Positions 3,552-36,331 of a stretch of DNA of 64,000 nt are shown here, piece after piece. The position numbers and the translations under genes are program-made. The DNA is from a virus (Duplodnaviria; Caudoviricetes): positions 1-64,000 of IMG/VR virus record IMGVR_UViG_2932588108_000002. One strand, 5' to 3'. The notes under the pieces were generated by a model, which worked only from the letters and a program-made list of their open reading frames with translations, ran no database searches and had not been told where the DNA came from. Position 1 is the first letter of the stretch, and the number at the start of each line of letters is the position of its first letter.

Positions 3552-3682
3552 GGTGTTCCTTCCTTCGGGCTGTTGGCGGTGCTCTCCGCCAACACCTCAG
3601 AGAGTACAGCAATAAGACTCCCGTGTGTAGTAGCCCCAGGGAAGATGGAGGGAACGAGGTTCGGGAGTCGCGTTGCTGAGCC
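3552..3682 (-). promoter_or_regulatory. Early-type promoter module: inverted pair of 18-bp boxes, -10 TACTCT, AGAGCA-loop hairpin and RBS tail
   Basis: Box at 3603-3620 (minus GAGTCTTATTGCTGTACT), inverted degenerate box at 3665-3680, hairpin 3571-3594, tail 3552-3570. Confidence 0.75.
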
Positions 3683-3688
3683 GAAGGG

Positions 3689-4712
3689 TCACGCGATGAG
3701 CATGACGCCGCCGATGGTCTTCGCCCGTCGGACGACGACACCGCCTGTACGGCGCGGTGGGGTCGGTTCCGGCAACTCCCGCAGCGGCGTGCCCACGGTC
3801 CCATCTCGGCCCGTCAGTTGCGTGAACCGCTCCTCGAACTTCGGTCGCTGCTTGTCGTGCACCCTGGCCGGCGCCGCCACCAGGTACGCGGATGCCGTTT
3901 GGGTAGCTGTCGCCTGCGGTCAGGTAGTGCGCCCGATAGATACCGGAGTGCTCGCCCTGCTCCAGCGTCATGCCGTGCTCGCCGGCCAGGGCCCGCACGT
4001 GCGCCTCCGCCTCCGCCCGGCTCCCCTCGAACACAGTGCGCACCGACCGCCACGCCTGCCCCTTCGCCGTCTTCCCCCAGCACCCCTCCGGGCCGGAGCA
4101 CCAGGGCGCGAAGTCCCCGGCCGGGTGATCGGCGCGGCACGTCTCGGTACGAGGCTCACGGCACCACCAGCGCGGCTTCCGGCACGTCCTGCCGTGCCAC
4201 TGGCGGCAGTCGTCCGTACGGGCCGCGAAGTACATCCTGCGCACCTCGTACACCGCGTACGGGGTCTGCTGGTGCCGTCCTCCGTGAGCCGCTTCCGCAA
4301 CGACTTCGTGCCGTACAGGGCGACGCGCTCGTTCAGAGACTGGGAGACGTACTCCATGCGCAACACGTCGGCCGCGATGTGCGGATGGGCCCTCAGCCGC
4401 TCCTCGTGCGTGTCCCTGGAGGCACAGACGCCACTGAAAGGGCACAGCAGTAGGACTTACGGATCTTCTCGCCGAGCCGCTCGAGGACGTACGCCTCCAC
4501 GGCGGCCCGCTTCATGCGCGCGTGGATCAGCGGGTAGTACGGCTCGCAGATCGTCCGGCCGGCCTCGGCGTTCAGCTCCCGCTGAATGGCGGTGTCCTTG
4601 TCCGCCCGGTCCATCTCCCCGGCGTGGTAGCCGATGACCCGCCGGAACGACGACATGCCGAACTCGGCGGCCGCTCGCGCGTCCAGGCACCAGCCTTTGA
4701 ACTTGACGGAGC
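3689..4712 (-). pseudogene. Middle and C-terminal part of a second adenine nucleotide alpha-hydrolase (PAPS reductase/QueC-like) gene, frameshifted
   Basis: KFKGWCLD...RRVIGYHAGE..RA...YYPLI...RKSYC, then CPFS in another frame; further frame changes near 4265 and 3880. Confidence 0.65.
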
Positions 4713-4829
4713 TCCTCTGCACCAAGTCAAGGAGAACCTCCGAGGTCTTGGTGCGCCGGGAGCAGCGGAGACCGCCGATGACGCGACGACGGCAGGGACG
4801 GAGGCTCCGTCCCTGCCGTCGCGCTGCCC

Positions 4830-5288
4830 TTATGGAACTGGCGGACCGGCCGGACCGTTGGTCGGCACTGAGCCAGCGGCAGGCGCAGGCTGGGATGCCG
4901 CACCATTCATGGCCTCCCGGAGGCCACGGAAGGCGCCGCTGACCCCCGAGCCGATCAGGCTTGCCTCCGACGCGGTGACAGGCCGACCGAGGAACTTGGC
5001 AACCACCACCACCATCGGTGGGATGAGTGCGACTGCGACCCAGGCGTGCCCACTCTGGGCCAGCCAAACGGTGGCCAGGAGCAACGCGATCAGTGCGAGA
5101 AAGCCCATCGCAGTTTCGAAGCGCTGTTGCTTCCGCTCATCTGCCCGCTGCGCCCGTTCGTGCTCGCGCTGCTCGCGAGCGTTCCATGCCTCGAGCAACG
5201 CGGCTTTGCCTGCTCCGTCCAAGTCCGTCCGCTGCAGCACGAGCTGATAGATGTCCCGAAGATCTTGATCCCTCTGGCCTCGGTTCAT
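4830..5288 (-). CDS. Two-TM membrane protein with coiled N-terminus
   Basis: Charged helix followed by AMGFLALIALLLATVWLAQSGHAWVAVALIPPMVVVVAKF. Confidence 0.7.
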   Translation of the reverse strand: MNRGQRDQDLRDIYQLVLQRTDLDGAGKAALLEAWNAREQREHERAQRADERKQQRFETAMGFLALIALLLATVWLAQSGHAWVAVALIPPMVVVVAKFLGRPVTASEASLIGSGVSGAFRGLREAMNGAASQPAPAAGSVPTNGPAGPPVP

Positions 5289-5491
5289 CGGCCCGACCCC
5301 CCAAGTCGGCCCAGGTCTCGTGGGACCTCCCCAGCTCGCAGACTGCGTGCCAGCTCGGCGACGATCCCTCGCTGCCGGCTCCGGGCAGCCTCTCGGCGCC
5401 CGATTCGGTGCGCGATATACCTGGATGCGACTGCGGCGACGACGCTGCCCGTCGTGGCAGCAATAGACAGGGCGTCCAGCACGGACGACAC
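5285..5491 (-). CDS. Small membrane-anchored hypothetical protein
   Basis: Hydrophobic N-terminus; its stop overlaps the start of the next gene (ATGA). Confidence 0.5.
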   Translation of the reverse strand: MSSVLDALSIAATTGSVVAAVASRYIAHRIGRREAARSRQRGIVAELARSLRAGEVPRDLGRLGGSGR

Positions 5492-5800
5492 GAACTCACC
5501 CCCGTTGTATGCGTATTGATGCGGAAGCGACTGCACCCTCACCAGTAGAGCACGACGCTCGGACATCCCTCCGGCCTCGCCGGTCGCCTTGCCTAGGATC
5601 CGGCGACGTTCACCCGCTCGGGTGACGAGTGCCGGGCAGGCCAAGCAGGACTGTGGTTCTGGCGGCGGTCCGGGCCGCGTCGGCTTGTTTGGTGCGGACG
5701 AAGGTCAAGGTCATGTCGATGCCCTCAATCTCGCCCAGCCACTGCTCCTCCTCGGCTCGCTTGCGACGGAGAACCAGGTCCCTCTCGATCTCGGCCAGCA

Positions 5801-5951
5801 CGGCGAGGAACATCAGCAGGAGCGCTGTACTGTCCGCGCCGAGCCCGTACGACAAGACCGTGATGCCGAACCGGCGGAACGTGGCAGGCGCGGCCGCGGG
5901 CGCCGCAGCGGGGGCGGGCAGGTCGAACAGGGCAGGGGCAGACACGGGCAT
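5801..5951 (-). pseudogene. N-terminal fragment of the second alpha-hydrolase gene
   Basis: ITVLSYGLGADSTALLL is a PP-loop motif (SxGxDS); fused in frame to the integrase tail. Confidence 0.7.
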
Positions 5952-6008
5952 TCCTCCGGGAGATCCGGCGACGGCCGGGCGGGGCAGGGAGCTGCGAGGG
6001 AGGGAGCG

Positions 6009-6365
6009 TCAGCGGGGCCCGAACACGCGGGCCATCAGGGGCTGGAGGGACCGACGACGGCCACAGCGCTCGTACACCCGGACCATCGCGGCGACGTCCG
6101 CCGGGTCCGGCGCCTGGCTCCACCGGACGCTGAGGACCACGTACTCACCCGAGTCCGGCCGGTCCAGACGGAGGTACGCCCCGCCCAGGTCGGACTTCCA
6201 CAGCATCCAGACGTGATCCGTCTCGGAGCTGCGCTCGAACTCCCCGGTGACCATCGGCGACGGCAGACCCGTCAGGCGGGCCACCTCGTCGGTGAACGAC
6301 TCAAACGTGTACCGGGGCGACGGCTGAGCGGGCAGGTGGGACTGGAGCCAGAACGGCAGCGGCAT
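6009..6365 (-). CDS. Hypothetical protein
   Basis: MPLPFWLQSH...; GGAGG RBS upstream. Confidence 0.65.
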   Translation of the reverse strand: MPLPFWLQSHLPAQPSPRYTFESFTDEVARLTGLPSPMVTGEFERSSETDHVWMLWKSDLGGAYLRLDRPDSGEYVVLSVRWSQAPDPADVAAMVRVYERCGRRRSLQPLMARVFGPR

Positions 6366-6547
6366 GGGGGCTGGAACCTTCCTCCGAGCGGCGAACAGAC
6401 CACCGGCGGGCCGGACGCCGAGAGAGCGGGAAAAGCGCTGGCAGACCGGGTTTTGGGACTTTTGGGACCGTCCACACACGCGCGCGTGCGCGTATGGGGT
6501 GCGCCGCGCCGCCCACGGTCGATGGGCGGCGCGGCCGGCCGGGGCGG

Positions 6548-7000
6548 TCAGAAGGTGCAGGTACCGGCGAGCGCGCGACGGTCCTTGGACGCGATGGAGG
6601 CGCAGCCCCGGACGCGGAGGTCGCCGGCCTGCGGGTAGTCGCGCCACCAGCGGGCGTCCGCGTCCCAACCGGACTCGCCGACGATGAACCCGTAGAAGGT
6701 GCCGCCGTCGAACTTGCGGTACAGCCACAGGCCGTGGGCGTGGTCAACCTCGGCGGCGACGGGCGAGGCGAGCACGGCGTCGAAGATCGTGCGGACCGTG
6801 GTAGCCACCCAGGAGTCGGCGGGGTGCGCGTCGGACTCGAAGAAGATGCCGCGGGCGTTCGGGTCGATGCCCTGGAGGGCGGCGACGGCGAGGGGGCGGG
6901 CGACGGCGTCGGGGATGACGGCGTAGGCGCGGCCCATGTTGTCGGTGGTCACGGTGACGTCGGTGACGGCGAGCGTGGGGGCGGCGGTGACAGTGGCCAT
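6548..7000 (-). CDS. Hypothetical protein
   Basis: Start directly follows the conserved leader element at 7001-7039. Confidence 0.75.
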   Translation of the reverse strand: MATVTAAPTLAVTDVTVTTDNMGRAYAVIPDAVARPLAVAALQGIDPNARGIFFESDAHPADSWVATTVRTIFDAVLASPVAAEVDHAHGLWLYRKFDGGTFYGFIVGESGWDADARWWRDYPQAGDLRVRGCASIASKDRRALAGTCTF

Positions 7001-7136
7001 GGTGTTCCTTCGTTCGGGCGTCCCGGTGCTCTCCGGGACTGGTGAGGGGGCGGTGCGCCCTGGGCCTGCACCGGGCGGGCCGGTGAGGGGCACCGCCCGC
7101 CGGGGGGACGGCGGGCCGGTGCGGTCGAGGGGGCGG

Positions 7137-7415
7137 CTACACGCCCTGCTGGCCGAGCCACTTGTCGAGCATGGCCTCGCTGGTGCTGCCCTGGTGTGCG
7201 GCGGCGTACGCGGCGGAGCGGTCTCCGGCGATCACGATGCACAGCTCCCCGGCCTCCACCACCGCGGCGAGGCCGTGCAGTTCCTCGAGCAGTGCGTCGT
7301 AGTCCTCATCCCGGGCGAGGGTGACGCGGTAGACCTTCGACTTCTCGGTGCCCGGGTAGGCGACGACGGCCAAGAAGAACAGGAGCTGCGGGGTCTTGTT
7401 GAGGGACACGGGCAT
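7137..7415 (-). CDS. Hypothetical protein
   Basis: Start follows the leader element at 7421-7460. Confidence 0.7.
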   Translation of the reverse strand: MPVSLNKTPQLLFFLAVVAYPGTEKSKVYRVTLARDEDYDALLEELHGLAAVVEAGELCIVIAGDRSAAYAAAHQGSTSEAMLDKWLGQQGV

Positions 7416-7420
7416 TGTGG

Positions 7421-7677
7421 CGTTCCTTCGGTCGGGCGGGCCCCGGTTGCTCTCCGGGGCTGCGGGGTGAACCCGCTAGGACGACAGTACAGCAATGCGA
7501 CTCTGGCGCAACTGGGAACCCGCAAGAAACCGTAAACGCGCTGGTGAAATAGTGCCCGGCACACCTGTGCAGTCTCATGGCTGTACTTCCTACGGGGGTC
7601 CTGCTACGTTCTGGAGCCCCGCCACCCGGCGGCCCGGGGAGAGCACCCCGGGGAAGCCCGAACGAAGGAACACGTCC
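7421..7677. promoter_or_regulatory. Divergent promoter pair, each side with an 18-bp box and an AGAGCA leader hairpin
   Basis: Boxes at 7486-7503 (minus) and 7570-7587 (plus); hairpins at 7440-7460 and 7633-7652. Gene orientation switches here. Confidence 0.75.
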
Positions 7678-8109
7678 ATGCGCCTGTCCCGCCTGCTCCG
7701 TCGCCCTCGTCCCGCCGCGATCCTGGCCGCTGGCCTGACGATCGCCACCCTCGGACTCCTCGGCTCGTGCACCGGCGCCGACCCACACGCCGCGCCCCGG
7801 CCGGCCCGCACCGTCACCATCACGCCGCCCGCCGAAGACGACACCGTGGCCACGTACAACGCCGGTTGGAAGGCAGGCGTGGCCGCCCTCGGCGACAGCA
7901 CCAAGCCCACGTACCCGAACATCATCGGCGACGCCAACGACCCGGGCACCGTCGCGTGGGCAGACGGCTGGATCGACGGGCAGGCCGATGCCCTCGGCGA
8001 CGACAACCGTGACGGCCGGATCGAAGAGGACGAGAGCGGGTGGAACTGCCACCGCATGGGCAACCGCGTGTGCGGCCCGCAGTTCGACGCAAGCACCCCC
8101 CAGCGCTGA
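7678..8109 (+). CDS. Putative lipoprotein with an EF-hand-like loop
   Basis: Arg-rich n-region, hydrophobic h-region, lipobox LGSC; DDNRDGRIEEDE near the C-terminus. Confidence 0.7.
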   Translation: MRLSRLLRRPRPAAILAAGLTIATLGLLGSCTGADPHAAPRPARTVTITPPAEDDTVATYNAGWKAGVAALGDSTKPTYPNIIGDANDPGTVAWADGWIDGQADALGDDNRDGRIEEDESGWNCHRMGNRVCGPQFDASTPQR

Positions 8110-8186
8110 CCTAGACACCCCACCGACCCGCCGGGGCGCACCGCCTGCGCCCCGGCACCGCCCGAGCACCGACAGGAGAGACCGCA

Positions 8187-8417
8187 GTGACCGCCAACCC
8201 CCAGGGCCGCGACTGGAGCCGCATGGCGCGCGCCGACTTCGACGACTCCGCCCCGCTCGCCCTGGTCGACGCCCGCGCCGTCAGCCGCGCCGTGCCCGCC
8301 GTCGCGCACTCCAACGGGACCGATGCTCTGTTCGGGGAGGACCCGACGCCCGCGCGCCCCGCCCGCACCCGCAGGCCGGCCACACCGTCCACCGAGGACA
8401 CCGGCACCCTCTTCTAG
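8187..8417 (+). CDS. Small hypothetical protein
   Basis: AGGAGA RBS, GTG start. Confidence 0.6.
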   Translation: MTANPQGRDWSRMARADFDDSAPLALVDARAVSRAVPAVAHSNGTDALFGEDPTPARPARTRRPATPSTEDTGTLF

Positions 8418-8429
8418 CCAGTGAGAGCA

Positions 8430-8599
8430 GTGCAGCCGTGAGACTAGCGGCGCGCGCCAACAGCTCCCGCGCGCGCCGTTCCACCTGGAAAAACTTCGAT
8501 CAGTTCCCGTGGACTTGCTCCCCTTGCGAGTCTCATTGCTGTATTGTGTGTGTTGTTGGCGGAGAGCACCGCCAACAGCCCGAACGAAGGAACACCGCA
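8430..8599 (+). promoter_or_regulatory. Early-type promoter module (inverted box pair, -10 TATTGT, leader hairpin, RBS)
   Basis: Inverted box 8430-8447, box 8528-8545, hairpin TGTTGGCGG-AGAGCA-CCGCCAACA 8554-8577. Confidence 0.8.
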
Positions 8600-8995
8600 A
8601 TGGCTTCTGTCACCGCCCGCCGCATCCTCCGCGACCGCGTCCACGCCCACCGCGCCGCCTCCGCCGCCCGCCGCGAAGTTGCCCGCGCCGCCCGCCGCGT
8701 CCGCAACTCCGCCCGCTCCCTGGCCACGCACGTCATCGCCACCGGCGCCGACCGCGCGACCGTCAAGGGCGTCGTCAACGCCCTCCAGGGCGTTGCCAAG
8801 ACCGCCCGGACCAACGGCCTAAAGGGCAAGCGGGCCCGCATCCGCCGCACCGCCCAGGGCTTCAAGCGCCACGCCGTCACCGCCTACCGGTACACCCGCG
8901 CCCAGGTCGCCCAGATCGCCGCGCAGTACAAGCCGCGCAAGGCCGAGTACAAGGCCGTCCGCGCCGCGCTGATCGCCGCCTCAGCGACCCCCTGA
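8600..8995 (+). CDS. Highly basic hypothetical protein, possibly nucleic-acid binding
   Basis: Arg/Lys/Ala-rich with strong codon bias; follows the leader element. Confidence 0.75.
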   Translation: MASVTARRILRDRVHAHRAASAARREVARAARRVRNSARSLATHVIATGADRATVKGVVNALQGVAKTARTNGLKGKRARIRRTAQGFKRHAVTAYRYTRAQVAQIAAQYKPRKAEYKAVRAALIAASATP

Positions 8996-9068
8996 CCGCC
9001 GGGGCGCGGCCCTTCCGCCCGCCGCGCCCCGGCCCCCACCTCACCAAGCACCGGAGACGGAGACACCC

Positions 9069-9977
9069 ATGCCCGCGCTGCCCAACGCCCTCGCCGCCGC
9101 CCACCGCGCCCGCACCATCGCCGCCATCGCCCGCACCCGCGCCACCTCCACCACCGTCGTCCTCGACGACACCGGCCGCGCCGCGCTCACCCAGATCGCC
9201 GAACTGCTCGACACCGCCGCGCACTCGCTGGAGACCGAGGAACCCAGCACCGTGGACGGCATCGTGATCACGAACACCATGGACTGGGACGCCTCGTACG
9301 CGCTGATCACCGCCTGCCACATCGCCGCCGCCAACCCCGCGATCGGCTTCCCGCCCCACTTCACGCAGTACGTCACCGCGCCGGTCTTCGGCAACGACAT
9401 CGAGCTGCCCCCGTCGCTGCTCCCCGGCGGCCCCGTGCTGATCGCCCAGGAAGGCGACCTGTTCGCCCGACTCCTCGCCCTGCACGGCCACTACCTCGCC
9501 ATCACCGTCCCGCAGGAAGACCCGGAGAGCATCACCGCCGCGCTCGAAGCCGCGTTCACCCTGCACTGGAAGCACGCCCGCCTCGCTGAGGCCGTGGCCG
9601 TCGACGCTGCCCGCCCGTGCAAGCAGCCCACCGTCGAGCCCGCGCCGCTCGACCTCACCGGCCTCACCCCGTACACCGTCGGCGTCATCCGGCTCGCCGA
9701 GAGCAAGGGACTCCACCCGACCTGGGCCGGTCCCGGCTACCGCAACGTCACCCGCCGGATCAGCCTCAATGCGGGCGGCCAGCACGGCACGTTCGGCACC
9801 ATCCACATCGGCCGGAGAAGCGGCAAGGTGCTCCGCATCGAGCTGATCCACGGCAACGACGGCACTCCCACGCGCGCTGAGGGCGCCAAGGCCGCCCGTG
9901 CGCTCCTCAAGGCCGCGCACGTCCACGCCTGCCCCGACGACTGCACCGCCCCCTCCACGGCCACCTGCCGCCCGTAG
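9069..9977 (+). CDS. Hypothetical protein
   Basis: 302-aa ORF, GGAGA RBS, high GC3. Confidence 0.75.
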   Translation: MPALPNALAAAHRARTIAAIARTRATSTTVVLDDTGRAALTQIAELLDTAAHSLETEEPSTVDGIVITNTMDWDASYALITACHIAAANPAIGFPPHFTQYVTAPVFGNDIELPPSLLPGGPVLIAQEGDLFARLLALHGHYLAITVPQEDPESITAALEAAFTLHWKHARLAEAVAVDAARPCKQPTVEPAPLDLTGLTPYTVGVIRLAESKGLHPTWAGPGYRNVTRRISLNAGGQHGTFGTIHIGRRSGKVLRIELIHGNDGTPTRAEGAKAARALLKAAHVHACPDDCTAPSTATCRP

Positions 9978-10161
9978 GCGCCCCCGCTGCGCGGGACGCG
10001 ACGCAAGCCGCCCCCGCCCGGCCCACGGTCACACCCCCCGCTGCGCCCCGGGGCCCGGACGTACGAGCCGCCCCGGGGCGCGACGCAAGCACCACTCGCA
10101 TGACCAGATCACCCGGCCGGAGAGCACCGCGCCGGACCCGCCCGAACGAAGGAACACCCCA

Positions 10162-10992
10162 GTGACCCTGTCCGCCGTCACCCCCGCCGAGATCGCTGCC
10201 CCGCTCGCCGCGCTTCTGCCCGCCCGCCGGGGCGCCCGCTGGACGGTCGGCCCGGCCCCGTACGGCATCCGCAACAACGTCCCCACGTCCCGGCTCACGA
10301 ACGGCCGTCGCGCCCTGATCGTCGCCGAGGAAGCGGGACGCATCGAGGTCTTCGCCGACCGGCCCGGCGCGTTCGCCGTCACCCCCGACGTGGTGGTCGA
10401 CGCGACCGACCCGGCGCCCGCCCTCACCCTCGCCGCGCGCGTGCTGCGTTCCGTCCTCCCCGCCCTTGACGCCGACGAGATCCGGGAGACCGCCCGCGCG
10501 AAGGGTTGGGACCAGGTCCTCTCCGACCGCGCGACGGAGCTGCTGGAAGTCGGCTTCTCGCTCATCGACCACGGCGCCCATGCCGTTCCGGCTGAGGGCG
10601 TGAACGGGCCCGGCCTGATGTGGACGGCCGACAGCGGCGGCACCTGGGGCCTGTGGGTGTACGGCCTGAACCGGAACCTCGTGCTGACGTACGACGGGCC
10701 CGTGCGTGGCCTGTACGGCTTCCTGCCGGTCGTCGTCACCCCGTACGCCGGACACGCCGAAGACCACGCCGGGAGCGCCTTCACCCGGAACCTCACCGAC
10801 CGGCTTCCGCAGCTCCGCCCGGTCGACGACGGCGAGGTCCAGTTCGGCGCTCGCCGAGAGCCCTCCGGCTGGATCGCGCTCCCCACCGCCGACGAGCCGA
10901 CCGACCGCGCCGACGACGACCGGCGCGTGGTCGCCGAGATCAGCGGTATCGGCGTCGACCTGCTGCTCACCACCGTCGCGTACCTGGTCTGA
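10162..10992 (+). CDS. Hypothetical protein, paralog of the next gene
   Basis: GTG after the leader element at 10113-10160; shares LAALLP..G..WTV.P and VLR.VLP.LD with 11060-11917. Confidence 0.75.
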   Translation: MTLSAVTPAEIAAPLAALLPARRGARWTVGPAPYGIRNNVPTSRLTNGRRALIVAEEAGRIEVFADRPGAFAVTPDVVVDATDPAPALTLAARVLRSVLPALDADEIRETARAKGWDQVLSDRATELLEVGFSLIDHGAHAVPAEGVNGPGLMWTADSGGTWGLWVYGLNRNLVLTYDGPVRGLYGFLPVVVTPYAGHAEDHAGSAFTRNLTDRLPQLRPVDDGEVQFGARREPSGWIALPTADEPTDRADDDRRVVAEISGIGVDLLLTTVAYLV

Positions 10993-11059
10993 CCCCCTCC
11001 CGCCCGGCCGCGCTCCCGGACTGCTCCCGGGGGCGCGGCCCCCTCGAAAGGCCCTTGCC

Positions 11060-11917
11060 ATGACCCCGATCGCCACCGCCCCCGCCCGCCCCGGCTGCCC
11101 CGCCCAGACCCTCGCCGGACGCATCGCCGCCTTCCTCCCGGAGCGGGCCGGCATTCCGTGGACTGTCGAGCCCTACGACGCGTGGTGGACCGCCCGGTAC
11201 CCCGCCGCCCGCCTCGTTCAGGGTGGCCGCGCCCTGGTCCTGGTCGCGCGCACCTGGGACACGCAGATCGGCTGGCAGCTCCCCGACCGCGAGCCGACCC
11301 GGCCCGATCTCCAGCTCGAGAGCGTTAGTCCGGCCGTCATCGCGCGGGAGGTGCTGCGCCTGGTCCTGCCCGTCCTCGACGACGAGGCCGCCGGACGCGC
11401 CGCCGCCGACGGACCGCGCGTGATGGGGCGGCTGGAGCTGCTTGACGAGATCGGGCACGCGATGCGTCTGCAGGGCGTGGCGACGTACAACCGGATCGGT
11501 CTCCTGGCGAACACGTCCACCCTGGCGTGGGGTGCGCCGTCCGGCGCCCGGTACTCCGTCACCCTGCACGGCACGAACCCCGTGGCCGACGTCCAGATAC
11601 AGGGCCCGGTGCGCGCCGTCGAGAAGGCCGTGACCTACTTCCTGCCCCCGGCCGCCGACGGGCGCCCCGAGATCCCCCGCGTCCGCGGACGTCTGCAGCG
11701 CCGCCTGGCCGCCGTCCTCGCCCGGCACGGGCACGTCGAGCAGACCGAGCAGGGCGGACTCGCGTTCAGCACCGGCCGCGGCCCCGGGCCGTACGGGTAC
11801 GCCGCGCCCGCCCTCGACCCCGTGTCCCGCGCGCACGACACGACCCCGGCGTCCGTCGACCTCCACGGCCTCGGCGCGGACTTCCTGATCTCCCTCGCCC
11901 CGCAGCTCTGCCGCTGA
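11060..11917 (+). CDS. Hypothetical protein, paralog of the previous gene
   Basis: IAAFLPERAGIPWTVEP...GGRALVLV...VLRLVLPVLDDE. Confidence 0.75.
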   Translation: MTPIATAPARPGCPAQTLAGRIAAFLPERAGIPWTVEPYDAWWTARYPAARLVQGGRALVLVARTWDTQIGWQLPDREPTRPDLQLESVSPAVIAREVLRLVLPVLDDEAAGRAAADGPRVMGRLELLDEIGHAMRLQGVATYNRIGLLANTSTLAWGAPSGARYSVTLHGTNPVADVQIQGPVRAVEKAVTYFLPPAADGRPEIPRVRGRLQRRLAAVLARHGHVEQTEQGGLAFSTGRGPGPYGYAAPALDPVSRAHDTTPASVDLHGLGADFLISLAPQLCR

Positions 11918-12920: not shown

Positions 12921-13045
12921 AGTGCAGCCGTGCGAGTTCACCCGGGTTTTTCCCTGCTCCCGCGGCACGCGAGTCTCATTGCTGTATTGTGCGTGGCGTT
13001 GGTGGAGAGCAGCCACCAACGAAGCCCGAACGAAGGACACCGCAG
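12921..13045 (+). promoter_or_regulatory. Early-type promoter module upstream of the C5 methyltransferase
   Basis: Inverted degenerate box 12921-12938, box 12971-12988, -10 TATTGT, hairpin CGTTGGTGG-AGAGCAG-CCACCAACG 12997-13021, tail GCCCGAACGAAGGACACC. Confidence 0.8.
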
Positions 13046-14374
13046 ATGAGGGACCTGCCCGCCAAGGTCAAGACCGCAATCCACGTCGCCACGCTCGCCC
13101 GCAAGGCCGGTCTGCCCATCCCCGCCAAGGTCCGCCCGATCCTCGAAGAGGCCGCCGCCCCGTGGCCCGCCGAGTGGCTGCTCGCCCCTCTCCCCGGCGA
13201 CCCGATCCGCGTCGTCGAGCTGTTCGCGGGCCCCGGCGGCTGGTCCGAGGGCATCGCCGCCGTCCTCGGCGTGGCCGTCGACTCCGTCGGCGTCGACATC
13301 TCCGAAGACGCCTGCGCCACCGCCCGCGCCGCCGGTCACCGCCGCATCTGCGCCGACATCACCACCCTGGACCCCGAGCACATCGCCCTGCGCCACACCC
13401 GCGCGGTCATCATCAGCCCGCCGTGCCCGACCTTCTCTCCGGCGGGCAAGCTCTCCGGCCTGGAGCAGGGCAACATCCAGCTCCTGTGCGACGCCATCGC
13501 CTACGTCGGCGAGGCCGCCGGGTTCATCCCCATGGAGTGGCACCACAACGACTACGACGACGAATGCGGCTGCGACCCCGACGCCCCGGACGGAAAGGGA
13601 TGCCACGGCGACGGCTTCGCCCCGCGCTCCGGCGCCACCTGGGACGAGGTCCGCGAGATGGCCGCCGACGTCAGCGACCCTCGCATCGCCCTGATGCTGG
13701 AGGTCGTCATCTGGCCCCTCGCCCTGCAGGCCGCCGGTGCGCCCATCCAGTGGATGGCCATGGAGCAGTCCAGCAACCTGCCCGAGGAGATCCTCGACGA
13801 CCTGTCGTGCGAGTTTTCCTGCGCCGAGTGGTTCTACACCAACCGCGAGATCCTGGAGGCCGCCGACTACGGCCTGCCCTCCCGCCGCAAGCGCGTCTAC
13901 ATGATCGCCTCCCGCCGCTACACCCCCACCGTCACCCGCCGCATCCGCCCGCTCCCCGCCACGACCATGGCCCAGGCCCTCGGCTGGCAGCCCGGCGAGC
14001 GCGTCAACACCCGCGGCAACCGCCCCGTCGACCCGAAGACCGGCCGCGCCAAGGGCGGCAACAGCTTCTCCGCCGACGGCCCGTCCTGGTGCCTCACCGG
14101 CAAGTCCCGCACCTGGAAGCGCGAGAGCGACGGCTACCGGCTCACCGAGGCGGAGGCCGGTCTCCTCGTCGGGTTCCGCCGCTCCTACCCATGGCAGGGC
14201 AGCCGCACTAGCGCCTTCCAGCAGGCCGCCGACGTCGTCTCACCGGTCATGGCCGCCATCGTCCTGTCCGGCATGTTCGGCGCCCTCGGCGAGGCTCTGA
14301 TCCGTGACTACCTCGCCCAGCTCTACGACATGGACGACATGCTCAGTCCAGACGACTACGAGCTGATCGGCTAA
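13046..14374 (+). CDS. DNA cytosine-5 methyltransferase (orphan)
   Basis: Motif I ELFAGPGG, catalytic SPPCPTFS, MEQ (motif VI variant), DYGLPSRRKR, RLTEAEAGLLVGF. Confidence 0.9.
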   Translation: MRDLPAKVKTAIHVATLARKAGLPIPAKVRPILEEAAAPWPAEWLLAPLPGDPIRVVELFAGPGGWSEGIAAVLGVAVDSVGVDISEDACATARAAGHRRICADITTLDPEHIALRHTRAVIISPPCPTFSPAGKLSGLEQGNIQLLCDAIAYVGEAAGFIPMEWHHNDYDDECGCDPDAPDGKGCHGDGFAPRSGATWDEVREMAADVSDPRIALMLEVVIWPLALQAAGAPIQWMAMEQSSNLPEEILDDLSCEFSCAEWFYTNREILEAADYGLPSRRKRVYMIASRRYTPTVTRRIRPLPATTMAQALGWQPGERVNTRGNRPVDPKTGRAKGGNSFSADGPSWCLTGKSRTWKRESDGYRLTEAEAGLLVGFRRSYPWQGSRTSAFQQAADVVSPVMAAIVLSGMFGALGEALIRDYLAQLYDMDDMLSPDDYELIG

Positions 14375-27146: not shown

Positions 27147-28910
27147 ATGGCCGACCTACTCGTCGTCGCGGCTCTGTCAGAGGCTGTGGAGAACGCCTCG
27201 GCCGCGCGTCCTCTAGGCTCCAGAGGTTCTCGCGGTGAGATTGCGGAGAGCGGCCCCGCCGAGCTGACGCCTACGGCTACCGCGGTGCTGGCCGCAATTC
27301 CAGCCTGGTGGCGGGCTCAGGCTGCGGCAGCGGGCCTCACCGGCCGCTGGCTGGACATCGAAACGGCGCTCCAAGCAGACCCGCCCGTTGACGTTCCGAG
27401 CGATCCTCCCCTAGGCGACTCCTGGGGATCTCTTACGCCAGAGCAGGTGGGCGCTGCGTATGTGGAGGCCCTTTCGTCTGCCACGCGCGCGCGCCACGGC
27501 CGTCACTACACGCCACCCGAGCTCGCCTCACACTTGTGGAGGCTGGCACGCACGTCCCTGGATCTTCCTCCGCAGAAGCAGGTTCTTCCCGGGTTGGTGC
27601 GCGACCCAGCATGTGGCGCCGGAGCCCTTCTCCTACCAGCGTTGAGGGAACATCTCCATGCCTCCTTCGGCGTCGATCCGGCGCTGACGCTGGCGGGTCT
27701 CCCCAACCTGATCCAGGGAGTCGATACCGACCCAGCTGCCGTATGGGTCGCCAACGTCGTTCTGGCGGCGGAGATGCTTCCCACCCTCGCCCGCGTCCCC
27801 GAGAAGGTACGCAAACCGTTGCCGTCGCTGGCTCGCGTTGGCGACGGGCTTGCCGCCCCCGACCAGCAGGCGCGAGTCGTCATGATGAACCCGCCATACG
27901 GTCGCGTTCGACTCTCGCCCGGCGAACGCGACCGCTACGCGCATGTGCTGTACGGGCACGCCAACCTGTACGGCCTTTTCATGGCAGCGGCCGTGGCCTC
28001 CTTGGACGAGACGGGCGTTCTGGCGGCCCTTGTCCCCACGAGTTTCACCAGCGGACGCTATTTCTCAAAGCTGCGCACCTACCTGGGCCGCGAAGCTGGG
28101 ATGAGTGCCGTCACGTTCGTTGAGGACCGCAGCGGCGTGTTTACTTCCGTCCTGCAAGAGACTTGCCTGGCCACTTTCGAGCGTCGCCGACGGAAGAAGA
28201 CGCGGATCAGCAGCCTAGGCAGCGCAGAGACCACGATCGCGAGTGTGAAGACACAGAGGACCGGCGAGCCATGGGTATTGCCGCGCCGGTCGGATGACGC
28301 GCCCGTGGCTGCTGCTGCCTCCGCCATGACGGAGTCCCTCGCCTCACTAGGTTGGCGCGCTTCGACCGGGCCACTTGTTTGGAATCGCCGCAGCACCGAC
28401 CTGCACGCAAACTGGGGTCCGTCTCGGTCTCACGTCATTTGGGCAGCAGATCTCGACGGTGGCATTTTGCACCGTGACGCGGCTCGTGACTCGATGCGAT
28501 ACCTGGCGCTCACTGCGGCGTCTGACCTCAAGGTCATGGTTTTGGATGAGCCGGCAATCCTGGTACAGCGCACGACGGCTCCTGAACAGTCACGAAGACT
28601 TGTAGCCGCTCTCCTCGACGACGAAGCGCTGAAAGTTCGCCATGGGCGGGTCACGGTTGAGAACCACGTCAACGTTCTGCGGCCTACCGCTGCTGACCCC
28701 GTACTCACAAACGAAGCTATGACGCGATTGTTGGCCACAAGAGCACTGGACAGGGTAGTGCGCTGCATCTCGGGTTCCGTCGCGCTTAGCGCATACGAAC
28801 TGGAATCGATCCCGCTGCCCGACCGTGATGTGGTGGCCAAGTGGAACGACCTTGAGGGCGACGCGCTCGAAGCCGCCGTTGCCGCCGCTTACCGGCCGGA
28901 AGGCAGCTGA
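27147..28910 (+). CDS. Type II RM N6-adenine methyltransferase (gamma class, BsuBI/PstI-associated)
   Basis: GRHYTP, RDPACGAGA, MMNPPY, NLYGLF, VPTSFTSGRYF..LR, STGPLVWNR, ENHVN. Confidence 0.9.
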   Translation: MADLLVVAALSEAVENASAARPLGSRGSRGEIAESGPAELTPTATAVLAAIPAWWRAQAAAAGLTGRWLDIETALQADPPVDVPSDPPLGDSWGSLTPEQVGAAYVEALSSATRARHGRHYTPPELASHLWRLARTSLDLPPQKQVLPGLVRDPACGAGALLLPALREHLHASFGVDPALTLAGLPNLIQGVDTDPAAVWVANVVLAAEMLPTLARVPEKVRKPLPSLARVGDGLAAPDQQARVVMMNPPYGRVRLSPGERDRYAHVLYGHANLYGLFMAAAVASLDETGVLAALVPTSFTSGRYFSKLRTYLGREAGMSAVTFVEDRSGVFTSVLQETCLATFERRRRKKTRISSLGSAETTIASVKTQRTGEPWVLPRRSDDAPVAAAASAMTESLASLGWRASTGPLVWNRRSTDLHANWGPSRSHVIWAADLDGGILHRDAARDSMRYLALTAASDLKVMVLDEPAILVQRTTAPEQSRRLVAALLDDEALKVRHGRVTVENHVNVLRPTAADPVLTNEAMTRLLATRALDRVVRCISGSVALSAYELESIPLPDRDVVAKWNDLEGDALEAAVAAAYRPEGS

Positions 28911-28911
28911 G

Positions 28912-30006
28912 TTGAGGAAGATCATTAGTCCCGAAGAAGCCGAACGGCGACTTCAAGTCATCTTCCCCCGCGCGGCCTTCGACACGGTACTTTCATCGCC
29001 ATTGGCGGGAATGGCAGTAGCCGCTCTGATCTACGTGGAAGCGGTATGCAGTTCGAGCGACGAGGCGGAGACCGTCCAGTGGGCACGTCCTTCCACCGTC
29101 GTATGGATGTCCACGGCCACGCTTGAGCACGAGGCAGACGATGAGCGCCTCGCCTGGCGCGCTGCCGCGCTGAAGAATCAGAAGTACGTGCAGGACCTCC
29201 AAGAATCATGGGGCATCCCATTCCAGCCCAAATACAAAGACAACAGTCGCGAAACCCTTCGCGACGAGACTTTCCGGGCCTGGCGGGAACATAACGCGAT
29301 CCGAAAGCGGTCTGGGCTTCCCAGTAACAGCAGCAAACCCACTTGGTCACTGCTCGACGACTTCGCAGACCTGTTCGATCCCGACATGCCGGATGAACTC
29401 TTCAGAGAAGCCGCCGCCCAATGGCGCGACAAGCGTATGACCCCTGGTACCAAACTCAAAGCGCTCCGCGCCCTTAACGCGGAGGCCGCCCAGCATGCCG
29501 TAGTTGTAACGCTCCCCGACGGCACGACTCGGACTCTCGAACCTGGCGGCTCCTCCCTCATAATCAAGGGCGTCATCGAGGAGTGGGCTCCAGTTCGCCT
29601 GGGGCAGCCGGTAGTTCTGGCAATCTCTGAGCCAGGCGACAAAGTCCACCTCGGGGACAAGAAGATGCTTCAGGCGCTCGGCATCAAGATTGATCCCAAA
29701 GACGTACTCCCCGACGTTTTGATCGCCGACGCGAACCCAGACCCGGTCGTGTTTTGGATCATCGAAGCCGTAGCGTCAGACGGAGCCGTGACTACTGGGC
29801 GCCGCAAGGCGCTTTTGGAGTGGGCCGCACAGCAAAACATCAAACCGGATCACTGTTCGTTTCTCAGCGCCTTCAGGTCTCGAAACGCCGCCCCGGCCAG
29901 GAAGCGCCTCAAAGACCTCGCCCCTAACACCTGGGCGTGGTTCACTGACGAACCTGGTCACGAACTCTCCTGGTATCAGATGTTTCCCACCGCAGAGGAA
30001 GTCTGA
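28912..30006 (+). CDS. BsuBI/PstI-family type II restriction endonuclease
   Basis: YKDNSRETLRDET, LEPGGSS.IIK.VIEE, LPDVLIAD...IEAVASDG.V, AWFTDEP. Confidence 0.88.
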   Translation: MRKIISPEEAERRLQVIFPRAAFDTVLSSPLAGMAVAALIYVEAVCSSSDEAETVQWARPSTVVWMSTATLEHEADDERLAWRAAALKNQKYVQDLQESWGIPFQPKYKDNSRETLRDETFRAWREHNAIRKRSGLPSNSSKPTWSLLDDFADLFDPDMPDELFREAAAQWRDKRMTPGTKLKALRALNAEAAQHAVVVTLPDGTTRTLEPGGSSLIIKGVIEEWAPVRLGQPVVLAISEPGDKVHLGDKKMLQALGIKIDPKDVLPDVLIADANPDPVVFWIIEAVASDGAVTTGRRKALLEWAAQQNIKPDHCSFLSAFRSRNAAPARKRLKDLAPNTWAWFTDEPGHELSWYQMFPTAEEV

Positions 30007-33252: not shown

Positions 33253-33294
33253 CTCTGCCCCGCCTCGCGTTGTGATCTGATGTCGCGCCAACTT

Positions 33295-33335
33295 TAGCGA
33301 CAACAATCACAGTTGTTGTCGGCTACTAATTAGTA
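33295..33335. promoter_or_regulatory. AT-rich dyad: 12/13-bp arms with 6-bp spacer plus an adjacent 12-bp palindrome
   Basis: TAGCGACAACAA-TCACAG-TTGTTGTCGGCTA and TACTAATTAGTA between divergent genes. Confidence 0.6.
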
Positions 33336-33399
33336 ACAACGGGAGGTCATCACCGAAGGGCGGACAGCACCGCCCGAACCCCGAACGAACGACACCGCC

Positions 33400-33659
33400 A
33401 TGCAGAAGCTGAAGCTGTTCGCGTACGCCCTCGCGCTCCTGACCCTCGCGCACCCACCCTCATTCCACCTGCCCTCGGCACACTCGGCGTCACGGCCGCC
33501 GCGGTGGCCACCGCCATCGGATGATTCCTGGCGAACCCGTCGCTCACCCTCACGATCACGGCCCGCCGGCTACTGATCCGCGCCTTCCCCAGCGTTCCAC
33601 GGTGGTTGAGCCGTGCACTAGTCGCTTCAGTCGCTGCAACAGCCCCCGTCAAGGCGTAA
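33400..33659 (+). pseudogene. Frameshifted small membrane-protein gene
   Basis: MQKLKLFAYALALLTLA, then hydrophobic coding continues in another frame with an internal TGA; degenerate leader element at 33358-33399. Confidence 0.45.
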
Positions 33660-33792
33660 CACGACCGCCGTTCGAGCCGTTCGATTCTTCGCTCAGAACG
33701 ATTCTCTGCTCACCCCTGTCTGTGGCCACGGGCCTGCTGCCGCGCCAACTCGGCGGAGAGCACCGCTGGAATCCCGAAGGAAGGAACACCGT

Positions 33793-34302
33793 ATGTCCCG
33801 TCGCATCGTCGTCACTGCCCTGCAATACCAGGAGATCCTGGCGCGACGACGCGCCGCCCAACCACCCGTGGCCGCCGCCGCATCACGGAAGAAGGCCAGT
33901 AAGAGGCCTGCCGCGCACCCGGGCCCGCCGTCCATCCCGGCGGGGCCCGAGATCCCGCCGCTGCTCTCCGACCTGTCCGGCGTGGGGCACGTCCGAACGA
34001 CCCTCATGCCGTACGTGGAGGAGATGCTGACAAGCAATCAGTGCCTTCACCGGATGACCGAACACAAGATCAAGAAGCAGCTTCGCGCCGACGCTGCACA
34101 GATGATCACCCTTCAGCGTTTGCCCCGTCTCCAACGCGCGGCGATCTTCTATGTGCTGCACTCACGCCCCATCAACCAGAAGCGGGACCCCGGGAACTGG
34201 GCGTCGACAGCGAAGGCGTACATCGACGGTGATCAGGGGCTACCGGCGGCCTTCGCCGTGCCCATTTACCCGCCCCACGCCGGGCGGCGAAGCCGGCCTT
34301 AG
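33793..34302 (+). pseudogene. RusA-like Holliday junction resolvase, apparently 3'-truncated
   Basis: LTSNQ.LH...KRDPGNW..TAKAYIDG, after which the expected L..AG...DD motif is absent; leader element at 33751-33790. Confidence 0.55.
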
Positions 34303-34687
34303 TTGCTGACCTGACACTCCCCAAATCCACCCCAACTCGACCAGGCTGCGGTGTAGTTACGTTCGACCGCACATACCTTGAGCCGTGCTACATTCGAACC
34401 GGTAAGTCGTCAGGCTCTCTACTTGAGGCCTCGCGGTCTGCTTCCCGAGCATTCCGGCTGGGTGCACTGCGGCAATCGCAATGCACACCCGCACGGCGTG
34501 AGCTGGAATCAATGAGGCGGACCCTCCAGACTCCGAGCTAGCTTGCTTGCTTGGACTGTTGGCGACTGCCGAGAGCCGAGAACATTTGCGCACACGTCGG
34601 CGCGGGTGTCTCGGTCCGAACCGTAAGGGTTCGGATCGAGGCTGCCTGCGCACCCGATCCGACCCATGACAGGGAAGGTAGGGATCG

Positions 34688-34885
34688 GTGGACGGCGCAG
34701 CCATCCTCTTCATTCTCGCCGTCGCTGGCGTGGCTTCGATCTGCCTCTTCGCTCTGAAGGGGCTACTCGACCAGGTCCCGGATGTGATCGACTCCGCCGG
34801 GAAAGCACGCGACGCGTGGCACCGCTTCAAGAAGCCCGAGGAGCGGCCCCGGGTAGACGACGAGGAGCCGCCCGCTGCCGCTTAG
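34688..34885 (+). CDS. Small single-TM protein
   Basis: AILFILAVAGVASICLFAL. Confidence 0.6.
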   Translation: MDGAAILFILAVAGVASICLFALKGLLDQVPDVIDSAGKARDAWHRFKKPEERPRVDDEEPPAAA

Positions 34886-34954
34886 GCCCGTCGTGGGGTC
34901 TTCGTCGCTCTCCCTGACGCGTAAATACGGACCGCTGCGGAACACGGGGCCGTC

Positions 34955-35179
34955 GTGACGCGCCCCAGGAAGAGGGAGTTCGCCCCCGACGAGCTGACCG
35001 AGCTCATCGGGGGCGAGCTGCATCCCACGATGCCGCTCGAGGGCTGGCGCACGGTGACGCTGCACTGCCAGGTCGACGCGATCGGCCCGTCCGACCGGCA
35101 CCCGGACTTGGTCAGGCTGGAGGTGTCGTTCCCTCCGGGGTCGGCGTCTGCCCCGCCGGGTCCTGGCCCGCGTCGTTGA
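34955..35179 (+). CDS. Small hypothetical protein
   Basis: ORF with plausible codon usage. Confidence 0.45.
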   Translation: MTRPRKREFAPDELTELIGGELHPTMPLEGWRTVTLHCQVDAIGPSDRHPDLVRLEVSFPPGSASAPPGPGPRR

Positions 35180-35732
35180 TGCTTCGGAGCAACTCCTGCA
35201 GGCGCCGGCGGTCGTCGGCCAGATGCCGCACCCGGTAGGAGTTCTTCGCGAAGAAGATGCCTTGCACCGGCTCAAAGAGGGCCTGCACACGGCGAGCCCG
35301 TTCCACCACCTGCAGTTCGGTCAACCACGCCCCCCGCGCTGCCACTACCGCCCCCGTCAGCAACTGCTGCAGGTCCAACGGACCCGACGGGTAGGTCAAG
35401 ACGTACTGCTCGACGTGGTCGATCAGGTAGCGGGTGGACTCCTCCACCTGTTCCCCCCACCGGTCCAGCTCCCCCTGCAGTCGGCTGCGCACGGGTTCCG
35501 GCGCCTCGGCCGGCTCCATGTACTGAAGTCTGGCCGTCGCGGAGAGAATCGTCAGAACGTGCCCCGAGAAGGTGTCCCTCGCTGCCCAAGCCGCTTTGAT
35601 CCGCACCGACCGCGCTTCTAGCCGCGGCGCAAAGCGCGACACCGCGAAGGTGGTCGCCAACGTGGTGACCACGGCGATGATCACCGTCTTCATCCAAGGG
35701 TCGAGCACTGGCACTCCGTACGTAGCCCGCAA
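35112..35732 (-). CDS. N-terminally anchored helical hypothetical protein
   Basis: TM VIIAVVTTLATTFAV followed by a helical domain; start uncertain. Confidence 0.6.
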   Translation of the reverse strand: MRATYGVPVLDPWMKTVIIAVVTTLATTFAVSRFAPRLEARSVRIKAAWAARDTFSGHVLTILSATARLQYMEPAEAPEPVRSRLQGELDRWGEQVEESTRYLIDHVEQYVLTYPSGPLDLQQLLTGAVVAARGAWLTELQVVERARRVQALFEPVQGIFFAKNSYRVRHLADDRRRLQELLRSINDAGQDPAGQTPTPEGTTPPA

Positions 35733-35913
35733 CTGGCCCCCGCTTGCGGGAAGGTGGCGGGGGATCAGCTTCTACCACGCTGGCCGAATCATCCCGGTTC
35801 CCCCTGTCGCTCGGCCGCTCATCTCGCCGAGATTGACGAATTTCGGTGAGATCTTCCAATCTCCGTGATAGATCGGCACAATGGGGCTGTTGCTGATCTA
35901 GAGGGGGGTACCG

Positions 35914-36174
35914 GTGGCTGATCAAGAGTCGCCCCGAGTCCTACGGCTCACATTCGAGTTCCACGTGCCCGTCGGGCTGCGCGTCAACATCCATGGCTCA
36001 CGCGTGAGGAAGGCCGCTGAGGCGATCACCAGCGCCGTGCAGGCCCTGGCCGGTCAAGTCTTCCCGTGGGCCTCGGAAATGCGGGTCCGTCACGAATGGT
36101 CGTACGCCTGGCACGACCACAGGCCGGAGCCCATCAGCTTGCCGGCCACAGACAAGAACACGCCGAAGACGTAG
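35914..36174 (+). CDS. Small hypothetical protein
   Basis: GAGGGGG RBS before GTG. Confidence 0.55.
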   Translation: MADQESPRVLRLTFEFHVPVGLRVNIHGSRVRKAAEAITSAVQALAGQVFPWASEMRVRHEWSYAWHDHRPEPISLPATDKNTPKT

Positions 36175-36331
36175 CCGCGGGCTGAGCCCCGCGCGACAGA
36201 CCCACAACTGAACACCTGGCGTCATGGCCAGACCACCCCGGCGGAGAGCACCGCCGGACAGCCCGAACGAAGGAACTCGAAGGAAGTCCTGCGTATGACG
36301 CAGCCTCATCCATGGCCGATCAGCTGGAGGC

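Follow-up and report, generated by a model that had tools for sequence, protein, structure and literature searches.

Hairpins in 5′ leaders, beside the ribosome entry site, are known as operators by the Shine-Dalgarno sequence in T4 gene 43 and thrS, one gene each, and in eukaryotes as the iron-responsive element, while the nut sites of phage lambda, each a boxA and a boxB read by the arginine-rich motif of the N protein, occur twice per genome and have no start-codon register. In actinobacteriophages, repeats associated with translation starts have been known since 2011 without a mechanism. Phages of cluster K carry start-associated sequences (SAS), which follow a 13-bp consensus (GGGATAGGAGCCC) with at most 2 deviations and lie 3–7 bp before the start codon (PMC3203893, PMC12699233), this codon being ATG in 80 of 93 cases (PMC3203893). 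The same phages have extended start-associated sequences (ESAS), imperfect 17-bp inverted repeats with conserved arms and a variable spacer; in the portions of the report drawn on here, the departures from the repeat do not support RNA pairing, so that the authors favoured DNA sites (PMC3203893). The present study concerns a stretch of 64,000 nucleotides (hereafter the window), bases 1–64000 of the 90.6-kb IMG/VR record IMGVR_UViG_2932588108_000002, which is classed as a provirus with an estimated completeness of 69%. It carries ten copies of a leader consisting of a hairpin with a variable stem and a nearly fixed loop, followed by a ribosome-binding block and a start codon. This Streptomyces leader adds RNA covariation and a fixed loop to the known start-associated repeats, a combination that makes the question of what reads such tags directly testable.

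Each unit begins with a variable stem of 6–11 bp, carrying the loop (A)GAGCA(A/G) of 6–7 nt on GG/CC closing pairs. A linker of 1–5 nt then leads to a nearly T-free tail block, CCCGAACGAAGGAACAC, and the start codon lies 2–4 nt beyond the block. The covariance model proposed in an initial annotation of the window has 55 positions and 9 pairs and rests on 61 copies, some in the window and some in its relatives (model R1). Run at every window position with filters off, it returned exactly ten matches (48.7–66.7 bits, E 2.6e-18 to 7.2e-13), the eleventh-best scoring only 16.8 bits. These are the ten hairpins that the initial annotation had placed between 3552 and 36290; all are present, and each of the ten is in sense with its gene, as had been claimed. 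The tail was also said to run into the start codon, which is so for most copies and fails at copy 10, where there is no credible in-register start codon. With up to one mismatch, the apex decamer GGAGAGCACC occurs 24 times in the window against 9.6 expected (24 or more in 0 of 100 shuffles), and a search for the tail that allowed three changes located it at nine places, always adjoining a hairpin and never alone. The ten copies are as follows.

Copy 1, unit 3546..3599 (−): hairpin 3571–3594 with arms TGTTGGCGG/CCGCCAACA and loop AGAGCA, tail 3553–3569, ATG 3546–3548, R1 63.4 bits; heads a 142-aa protein without Pfam or PHROG family, the motif being kept by orthologues in three relatives.
Copy 2, unit 6998..7046 (−): hairpin 7020–7039 (GTCCCGG/CCGGGAC), tail 7002–7018, ATG 6998–7000, R1 53.5 bits; intergenic, without a promoter-like box, heads a 150-aa protein.
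Copy 3, unit 7413..7467 (−): hairpin 7440–7460 (stem GCCCCGG/CCGGGGC) with the 7-nt loop AGAGCAA, tail 7420–7436, ATG 7413–7415, R1 51.2 bits; heads a 92-aa protein.
Copy 4, unit 7626..7680 (+): hairpin 7633–7652 (CCCGGGG/CCCCGGG), tail 7657–7673, ATG 7678–7680, R1 63.9 bits; heads a 143-aa protein, phrog_3471.
Copy 5, the top scorer, unit 8549..8602 (+): hairpin 8554–8577, tail 8579–8595, ATG 8600–8602, R1 66.7 bits; heads a conserved arginine-rich 131-aa protein.
Copy 6, unit 10107..10164 (+): hairpin 10113–10135 with a one-base bulge, tail 10141–10157, GTG 10162–10164, R1 55.1 bits; intergenic, without a box, heads a 276-aa protein.
Copy 7, unit 12992..13048 (+): hairpin 12997–13021 with arms CGTTGGTGG/CCACCAACG and the 7-nt loop AGAGCAG, tail 13025–13041, ATG 13046–13048, R1 48.9 bits; heads a C-5 cytosine DNA methyltransferase (PF00145, 8.1e-20).
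Copy 8, unit 33350..33402 (+): hairpin 33358–33375 with loop ACAGCA, ATG 33400–33402, R1 50.4 bits; heads merely a 58-codon frame (G+C content at third codon positions 0.75) whose N-terminus is like that of Gilgamesh gp27.
Copy 9, unit 33743..33795 (+): hairpin 33750–33769 with two G.U pairs, tail 33773–33789, ATG 33793–33795, R1 55.1 bits; heads a 169-aa protein with weak RusA-like PHROG matches (phrog_9203, 8.4e-5).
Copy 10, a remnant, unit 36231..36282 (+): hairpin 36238–36257, tail 36262–36278, R1 48.7 bits.

The leader is a structured element with real covariation. Two alignments carry this result. Alignment A1 was made with MAFFT, was not fitted to structure and holds 61 of 100 listed candidates; those from L003, L007, L008, L011–L013, L017–L019, L025, L027, L029, L030, L033, L039 and L042 were left out as chance pattern matches, and further exclusions were candidates in which less than 4 of the 6 stem pairs could form, as well as, by eye, L001:15086 and L041:8918. 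In A1, 66.6% of cells pair against 52.8% in shuffles, and the covariation score is 0.346 against 0.154 in shuffled alignments (reached by 0 of 500), with slid controls at no more than 0.182. The larger alignment A2 holds the 81 matches at E ≤1e-6, from 25 sources, and, being fitted to the model, leans towards structure; here 78.3% of cells pair against 53.3% in shuffles (reached by 0 of 500) and the covariation score is 0.551 against 0.165, with slid controls at no more than 0.171. Covariation in a larger alignment, on which the initial annotation had staked its proposal, is thus present in the 81 copies. Changes on both sides are seen at 9 of 9 pairs in A2; columns 11–28, for instance, are GC in 44 and CG in 30 rows, columns 10–29 GC in 42 and CG in 26, and columns 8–31 CG in 21, UA in 18 and GC in 13. 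RNAalifold, applied to A2 unprompted, gives the same helix with 6 pairs, all compensatory, and single-sequence folds of the 81 copies predict the hairpin in nearly all rows.

The earlier observation that stems differ while pairing is kept and the apex conserved is borne out by the covariation in both alignments and by RNAalifold on A2. Positions A17, G18 and C19 are invariant across the 61 copies of A1 and all stem positions vary. The loop reads AGAGCA in 55 of 79 distinct copies, 21 others being one-base variants or extensions and three being odd calls. In at least 20 orthologous groups, defined by the downstream protein, the stems differ between genomes with pairing and loop retained: one lipoprotein-like gene, for instance, is preceded by CCCGGGG/CCCCGGG, GTCCCGG/CCGGGGC or GGCCCCGG/CCGGGGCC, depending on the genome. 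Rare variants of the tip, such as CGAGAGCACG and GGCGAGCATCC, track the gene rather than the genome, as would be expected if affinity were tuned per gene for one common reader.

All copies are sense to the downstream gene, and they are coupled to translation starts. In Streptomyces phage Gilgamesh (MN234216.1), the end of the unit coincides to the base with a start codon set by independent annotators in 15 of 18 copies. Of its other copies, one is 3 nt off, one lies before an unannotated frame of 17–20 codons that is conserved in four genomes, and one (L060:18213–18270) ends 45 nt inside the annotated methylase gp137, at MN234216.1 118223–118270. The annotated start of gp137 falls inside the hairpin, and the alignment with the window methylase begins at the leader-defined ATG. 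Annotation gains in both cases, as the leader relocates the start of the Gilgamesh methylase and reveals the short frame, which precedes an FtsK-like gene. Among the 81 copies the start codon is ATG in 68 and GTG in 12, and the gap from GGA to the start is 5–10 nt in 80; the tail has 0–2 T per 24 nt. Interior G.U pairs outnumber A.C mismatches by 14 to 3, under one criterion for both. Arms that are free to change and yet complementary, together with sense orientation and start-codon register, make a double-strand DNA operator unlikely and indicate that the message itself is concerned.

The closest annotated relatives of the window are Gilgamesh (129 kb) and three Streptomyces plasmids of 125–130 kb. 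Gilgamesh encodes terminase, portal, capsid and tail genes and additionally ParA/ParB-like, FtsK-like, integrase and sigma-factor genes, so that the family behaves as phage-plasmids; the carriers of the leader form one lineage of Gilgamesh-like Streptomyces phage-plasmids of about 90–130 kb. The remaining 26.6 kb of the window's record consist of virion genes, without a further strong R1 copy. The motif-bearing genes in the window are mostly unassigned in function by Pfam and PHROG, apart from the one C-5 cytosine methyltransferase and the one weak RusA-like protein, and the leader-tagged genes are non-virion genes, for which the early class named in the initial annotation is putative. Ten related records have 3–19 copies each (R1 cut-offs E ≤3e-4 for Gilgamesh and CP108533.1, E ≤0.001 for G001–G010):

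Gilgamesh: 18 copies
Plasmid CP108533.1: 18 copies
G001: 7 copies
G002: 18 copies
G003: 14 copies
G004: 10 copies
G005: 19 copies
G006: 13 copies
G007: 11 copies
G008: 3 copies

R1 finds zero copies in G009 and G010, which are unrelated virus records that merely share the exact pattern used for searching. A scan of species genomes found the exact apex-plus-RBS (ribosome-binding site) pattern in at least 120 stretches; among 80 loci listed from these genomes, six, all from Streptomyces, have R1 scores of at least 32 bits (31 matches), and seven other matches at E ≤0.001 score no more than 27.5 bits. In one 7.4-Mb host genome (G011), the source of one of these loci, all 16 matches of at least 32 bits lie on a single contig of 125.6 kb (C18), and matches elsewhere reach no more than 28.5 bits. 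A match at E ≤1e-5 is found in 6 of 101 sampled Streptomyces genomes, three of which have 11–16 clustered copies, one cluster lying within about 100 kb of a chromosome. A BLAST search with one 54-nt copy found Gilgamesh only among 50,697 phage records, barring short chance matches to Vibrio phages, and three plasmids only among 72,556. The leader is restricted to this element, and because host genes are without the tag, the most economical assumption is that any reader comes from the element itself.

No Rfam 15 family reaches its gathering threshold anywhere in the window; at E ≤10, in 3000–14000, only SECIS_2 and mir-6132 appear, at chance level and away from the copies. A literature search, with supplementary files outside its scope, found no description of the leader motif, nor of Gilgamesh. 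On both counts the leader may be called undescribed, as initially proposed. The loose analogy to mycobacteriophage start-associated sequences that had been drawn holds for placement (PMC3203893). As far as the portions of the SAS reports drawn on here extend, the likeness is that of a lineage-private, asymmetric block in multiple copies (11–19 per genome) that holds a Shine-Dalgarno core, lies in one orientation a few bases before the start codons of non-structural genes and is kept with the gene family across genomes. ATG is favoured in both (80 of 93 SAS, 68 of 81 leaders), and an inverted repeat stands immediately upstream in about half the copies. This resemblance is one of behaviour, not of homology. 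The SAS consensus with up to 2 mismatches has 0 matches in the window, the sequences are unrelated, and host genus and phage type differ. The leader arms are 6–11 bp long, free and covarying around a fixed loop, whereas the arms described for ESAS are 17 bp long and conserved around a variable spacer. The leader and SAS/ESAS are accordingly different families.

With the lambda nut sites the leader shares a short hairpin of loop-borne specificity lying early in the transcript, a position deduced here from box-to-stem distances only, and an arginine-rich small protein encoded nearby. It differs in having 10–19 sites per genome, which end on start codons, and no match to the N family was found by Pfam among 40 window proteins. 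A fixed loop, a free stem and a place in the 5′ leader beside the ribosome entry site are common to the leader, the operators of T4 gene 43 and thrS, and the iron-responsive element, the last of which is also one tag common to unrelated genes. The two operators differ from the leader in serving one gene each, the loop sequences differ as well, and a binding protein of the leader is postulated.

A sister lineage (L188, L190, L191 and L192, IMG/VR records of 93–96 kb) has a block of its own, GAGGAACCGACC, which abuts ATG or GTG at no fewer than 10 genes in each 16-kb locus and frequently follows GACCAAGGAAT, and it has its own promoter-like motif, GGGGTTGTG...TGATTTAATTAA. Like the leader tail, this is a purine-rich RBS block with GGAAC before non-structural starts, and the lineage encodes a homologue of the 131-aa protein at 43–45% identity. 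Unlike the leader, it has no AGAGCA hairpin (the best R1 score is 17.8 bits), its upstream hairpins have no common tip, and there is no spacer to the ATG. The comparison shows that start-associated blocks peculiar to a lineage are common practice among these elements, the fixed tip being an addition of the Gilgamesh-like clade.

The upstream contexts of the leader are varied. A promoter-like box, (GAGTCT)CATTGCTGTAYTNT, occurs six times in the window:

3601–3620 (−), upstream of copy 1
7484–7503 (−), upstream of copy 3
7570–7589 (+), upstream of copy 4
8528–8547 (+), upstream of copy 5
12971–12990 (+), upstream of copy 7
22873–22892 (+), without a leader hairpin

Five of the ten copies (1, 3, 4, 5 and 7) lie downstream of a CATTGCTGTA box. 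At copy 1 the box reads GAGTCTTATTGCTGTACTCT and the stem begins 6 nt past TACTCT; copies 1, 5 and 7 all have the stem beginning 6 nt past a TAYTNT hexamer, and this arrangement recurs in relatives with a different upstream half of the box. The 6-nt gap between −10 box and stem that the initial annotation had given for 3.6, 8.5 and 13.0 kb is correct by reading the sequence. Its statement that the other copies lack the box has to be amended, since copies 3 and 4 carry it 23 and 43 nt from the stem (core 7488–7497 (−) and 7576–7585 (+)), with a small extra hairpin between; it stands for the remaining copies. Two of the boxes face divergently between 7415 and 7678. In Gilgamesh-type relatives the upstream half of the box differs, for example TTGCCCAGGGTGTACTATTC, and TACTNT is retained. 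The box is presumably a promoter, and the box-adjacent hairpins would then lie at the 5′ end of the mRNA; a simple sigma-70 scan called no −35/−10 pair at the boxes.

Copies 2 and 6 are intergenic and lie behind a series of G+C-rich hairpins. Copy 8 follows a 24-bp palindrome at 33298–33321 and then TACTAA, and copy 10 has another conserved context. The unit is thus found after three different upstream contexts, also inside operons, and one box, at 22.9 kb (22879), stands without the unit, so that the unit is independent of promoter type, as would be expected for a post-transcriptional signal.

Two of these contexts have features of their own. The palindrome at 33298–33321 is near-perfect, CGACAACAAT-CACA-GTTGTTGTCG, lies between copy 8 and a divergent gene starting at 33306 (−), and recurs ahead of the orthologous leaders of Gilgamesh, G001, G005 and G006; it is likely to be a repressor operator. 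The gap before copy 2, 7040–7136 (−), contains three more G+C-rich hairpins, such as GCACCGGCCCGCC...GGCGGGCGGTGC, which are kept in at least seven related loci and may form a larger structured intergenic RNA or stacked terminators.

Copy 10 is a relic. In alignment A4, the sequence it has in common with four relatives breaks off within the tail, near 36276; other DNA follows, as does a second CGAAGGAA. The counterparts in the four relatives precede the conserved, unannotated frame of 17–20 codons (MPSRT...LSR), which is followed by the gene for an FtsK-like translocase:

Gilgamesh, L044:8950–9007 (−), leader copy before the short frame
G005, L047, leader copy before the short frame
G006, L055, leader copy before the short frame
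G001, L022, leader copy before the short frame

The breakpoint would fit a conserved tail that doubles as a recombination joint.

Of several possible explanations for the leader, we favour, at a probability of roughly 0.45, a tag in the sense RNA whose tip docks a reader encoded by the element, so modulating ribosome loading, with the hairpin serving in addition as a 5′-terminal structure at the box-adjacent copies. The leader would act in cis on the sense-strand RNA. A hairpin with a stem of any sequence would present the fixed tip, G-(A)GAGCA-C on a G-C pair, as a docking site, and would be followed by single-stranded RNA almost without U, which carries the Shine-Dalgarno sequence (AAGGA), with the start codon 5–10 nt after it. 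The tip would dock a sequence-specific reader, in all likelihood an element-encoded protein; this reader, placed beside the ribosome-binding site, would set 30S loading on some 10–20 unrelated non-virion transcription units. The outcome would be a post-transcriptional regulon; at a distance of 6 nt from a TAYTNT box, the hairpin would in addition form the 5′-terminal structure of the message. Structure, strand, coupling to start codons and restriction to the element are established by the data, whereas reading at the level of RNA and not DNA, the existence of a reader, its being an element protein and the direction of its effect are what we infer.

The leading candidate for such a reader is the arginine-rich 131-aa protein (8600–8995 (+), phrog_10890) behind copy 5, the copy with the highest score. 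It is 73–93% identical to its counterparts in Gilgamesh, G005 and G006, where its neighbours have 31–69%. It has 86 homologues, all from Streptomyces and many of them on contigs of 121–134 kb, which number at least 25; the spread of these marker homologues, with the motif present in 6 of 101 sampled genomes, means that the element family is common. The first 36 residues are predicted to form an arginine-rich helix, in which R7, R11, R24 and R25 are invariant, and an AlphaFold2 model (mean predicted local distance difference test score, pLDDT, 85.3) has the order helix-helix-helix-beta hairpin-helix-helix. The protein has no Pfam family, and its homologues in the sister lineage, which is without the AGAGCA hairpin, speak against it as the reader. 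On these data it may be regarded as a candidate reader of the leader tip.

Three other assignments were considered and set aside. A relation of the 131-aa protein to uS7 was rejected, as uS7 takes the first five places in Foldseek and most of the other leading ones, but at E values of 0.19–2 and a template-modelling (TM) score of about 0.2. A loop that acts as an enhancer by pairing with 16S rRNA finds no support, since complementarity of the fixed tip to Streptomyces 16S rRNA (L181) does not go beyond chance (one complementary 6-mer against 1.6 expected, no 7-mer). A separate RNA with a complementary loop was rejected because nearly every TGCTCT-loop hairpin in G000, Gilgamesh, G005 and G006 turns out to be a leader copy read on the opposite strand, with no conserved extra locus in these four.

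Several results weigh against a protein-read RNA tag. Many copies are orthologues, so that the cell counts of both alignments overstate the number of independent events. RNAalifold predicts zero pairs on A1, the consensus helix depending on the register of copies with 7-nt loops or bulges; a quarter of the A1 rows are off register because of 7-nt loops and a bulged stem. By mean folding energy the reverse complement has a slight advantage over the sense strand (−16.1 vs −15.2 kcal/mol, and it is the more stable one in 57 of 79 copies), so that this measure leaves the strand undecided. Openness of the ribosome-binding stretch does not differ significantly from that at other window genes (0.53 vs 0.45, one-sided p = 0.09). 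Pfam scans of 40 window proteins reveal no recognisable RNA-binding domain, and for the 131-aa protein Foldseek gives no clear fold match (best E 0.19, TM about 0.2), while a VIA-align comparison with all representatives has a best Z of 6.1, below the stated background.

A rather unlikely alternative, in our view, is a passive cassette, in which the hairpin stabilises the 5′ end and insulates it against 5′-end-dependent RNases and upstream structure, the tail is simply a strong RBS, and the whole has spread by duplication and recombination. In its favour, the stem lies 6 nt past the TAYTNT hexamer in the promoter-adjacent class, in the window and in relatives, and the tail has 0–2 T per 24 nt; the sister lineage (L188, L191, L192) uses its fixed block GAGGAACCGACC without a fixed hairpin tip, and a rearrangement breakpoint lies inside the tail of copy 10. 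A stabiliser needs no fixed loop, however, yet A17, G18 and C19 are invariant in 61 copies while stems vary, and the tip is fixed even across orthologues whose proteins share only 30–70% identity. Intergenic copies away from a primary 5′ end and the unremarkable openness of the RBS also disagree with it. We think it improbable that the leader is a nut-like site, at which hairpin (as boxB) and tail would load an arginine-rich N-like protein on RNA polymerase for read-through of the G+C-rich intergenic hairpins. Copies directly after promoter-like boxes, long G+C-rich hairpins ahead of intergenic copies, and the predicted arginine-rich N-terminal helix of the protein behind the top-scoring copy are what such a site would lead one to expect. 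It would need no fixed distance to the start codon, though, and in Gilgamesh 15 of the 18 units close precisely at an annotated start; the intergenic copies lie after, not before, the hairpins to be overcome, there are 10–19 sites per genome, and the 131-aa protein has neither Pfam family nor fold match and has homologues in a lineage without the AGAGCA hairpin.

Somewhat more improbable still is a processing mark, where an endonuclease would cut polycistronic messages at or just before the hairpin and leave it as a protective 5′ structure. About half of the copies are intergenic in co-oriented gene rows, and promoter-adjacent and intergenic copies would in this way share one mature 5′ end. 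RNase III needs about two helical turns, and sites of the T7 early type have a duplex of about 20 bp or more; stems of 6–11 bp are too short for it, and the distance from stem to CC(C/A) varies over 1–5 nt, unlike in an RNase P minihelix. It is very unlikely that the leader works at the DNA level, whether as the operator of a DNA-binding protein or as a hotspot at which recombination reshuffles gene cassettes. Were it a double-strand operator, there would be no need for freely varying arms to stay complementary, and the 14:3 ratio of G.U to A.C, the strict sense orientation and the start-codon register also tell against a DNA site. What speaks for it is the homology breakpoint inside the tail of copy 10 with a second CGAAGGAA after it, an antisense fold as stable as the sense fold, and the judgement of the authors, in the portions of the report drawn on here, that the related cluster K ESAS repeats are DNA sites (PMC3203893).

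Some further assignments were rejected. An intrinsic terminator is incompatible with a tail of 0–2 T per 24 nt, and a terminator scan of 3000–14500 flags no copy. The stems, mostly 6–10 bp, do not suit an RNase III site of the T7 early type, and the varying spacing to CC rules out an RNase P minihelix. The conserved letters do not fit mimicry of a tRNA D-arm or T-arm, or GGA sites of the CsrA type, and with a spacing of 16–22 nt tip and tail are too variably placed to be a promoter. A search for tRNA and tmRNA found none.

Returning to the sense-RNA tag, a bolder form of it can be envisaged, in which one small RNA-binding protein reads the AGAGCA tip and switches 10–20 operons at the step of ribosome loading, the 131-aa protein, regulating itself, being the leading candidate and sister lineages having other labels with matching readers. 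This form we regard as doubtful. If true, such a single-reader regulon would be the bacterial-virus counterpart of the iron-responsive-element system and could explain the purpose of actinophage start-associated sequences. The leader itself, compact and portable at 45–55 nt, could serve expression in Streptomyces.

The surroundings of the leader copies in the window include a second methylase, a restriction-modification pair, an integrase, a TrmO-like gene and a lanthipeptide cluster. Among this cargo are:

27642–30006 (+), an Eco57I-like methylase with a BsuBI/PstI-type endonuclease
36700–37173 (−), a protein with a TrmO_N domain
47319–52285 (+), a lanthipeptide set comprising LanB N- and C-terminal parts, LanC and a PCMT-type methyltransferase

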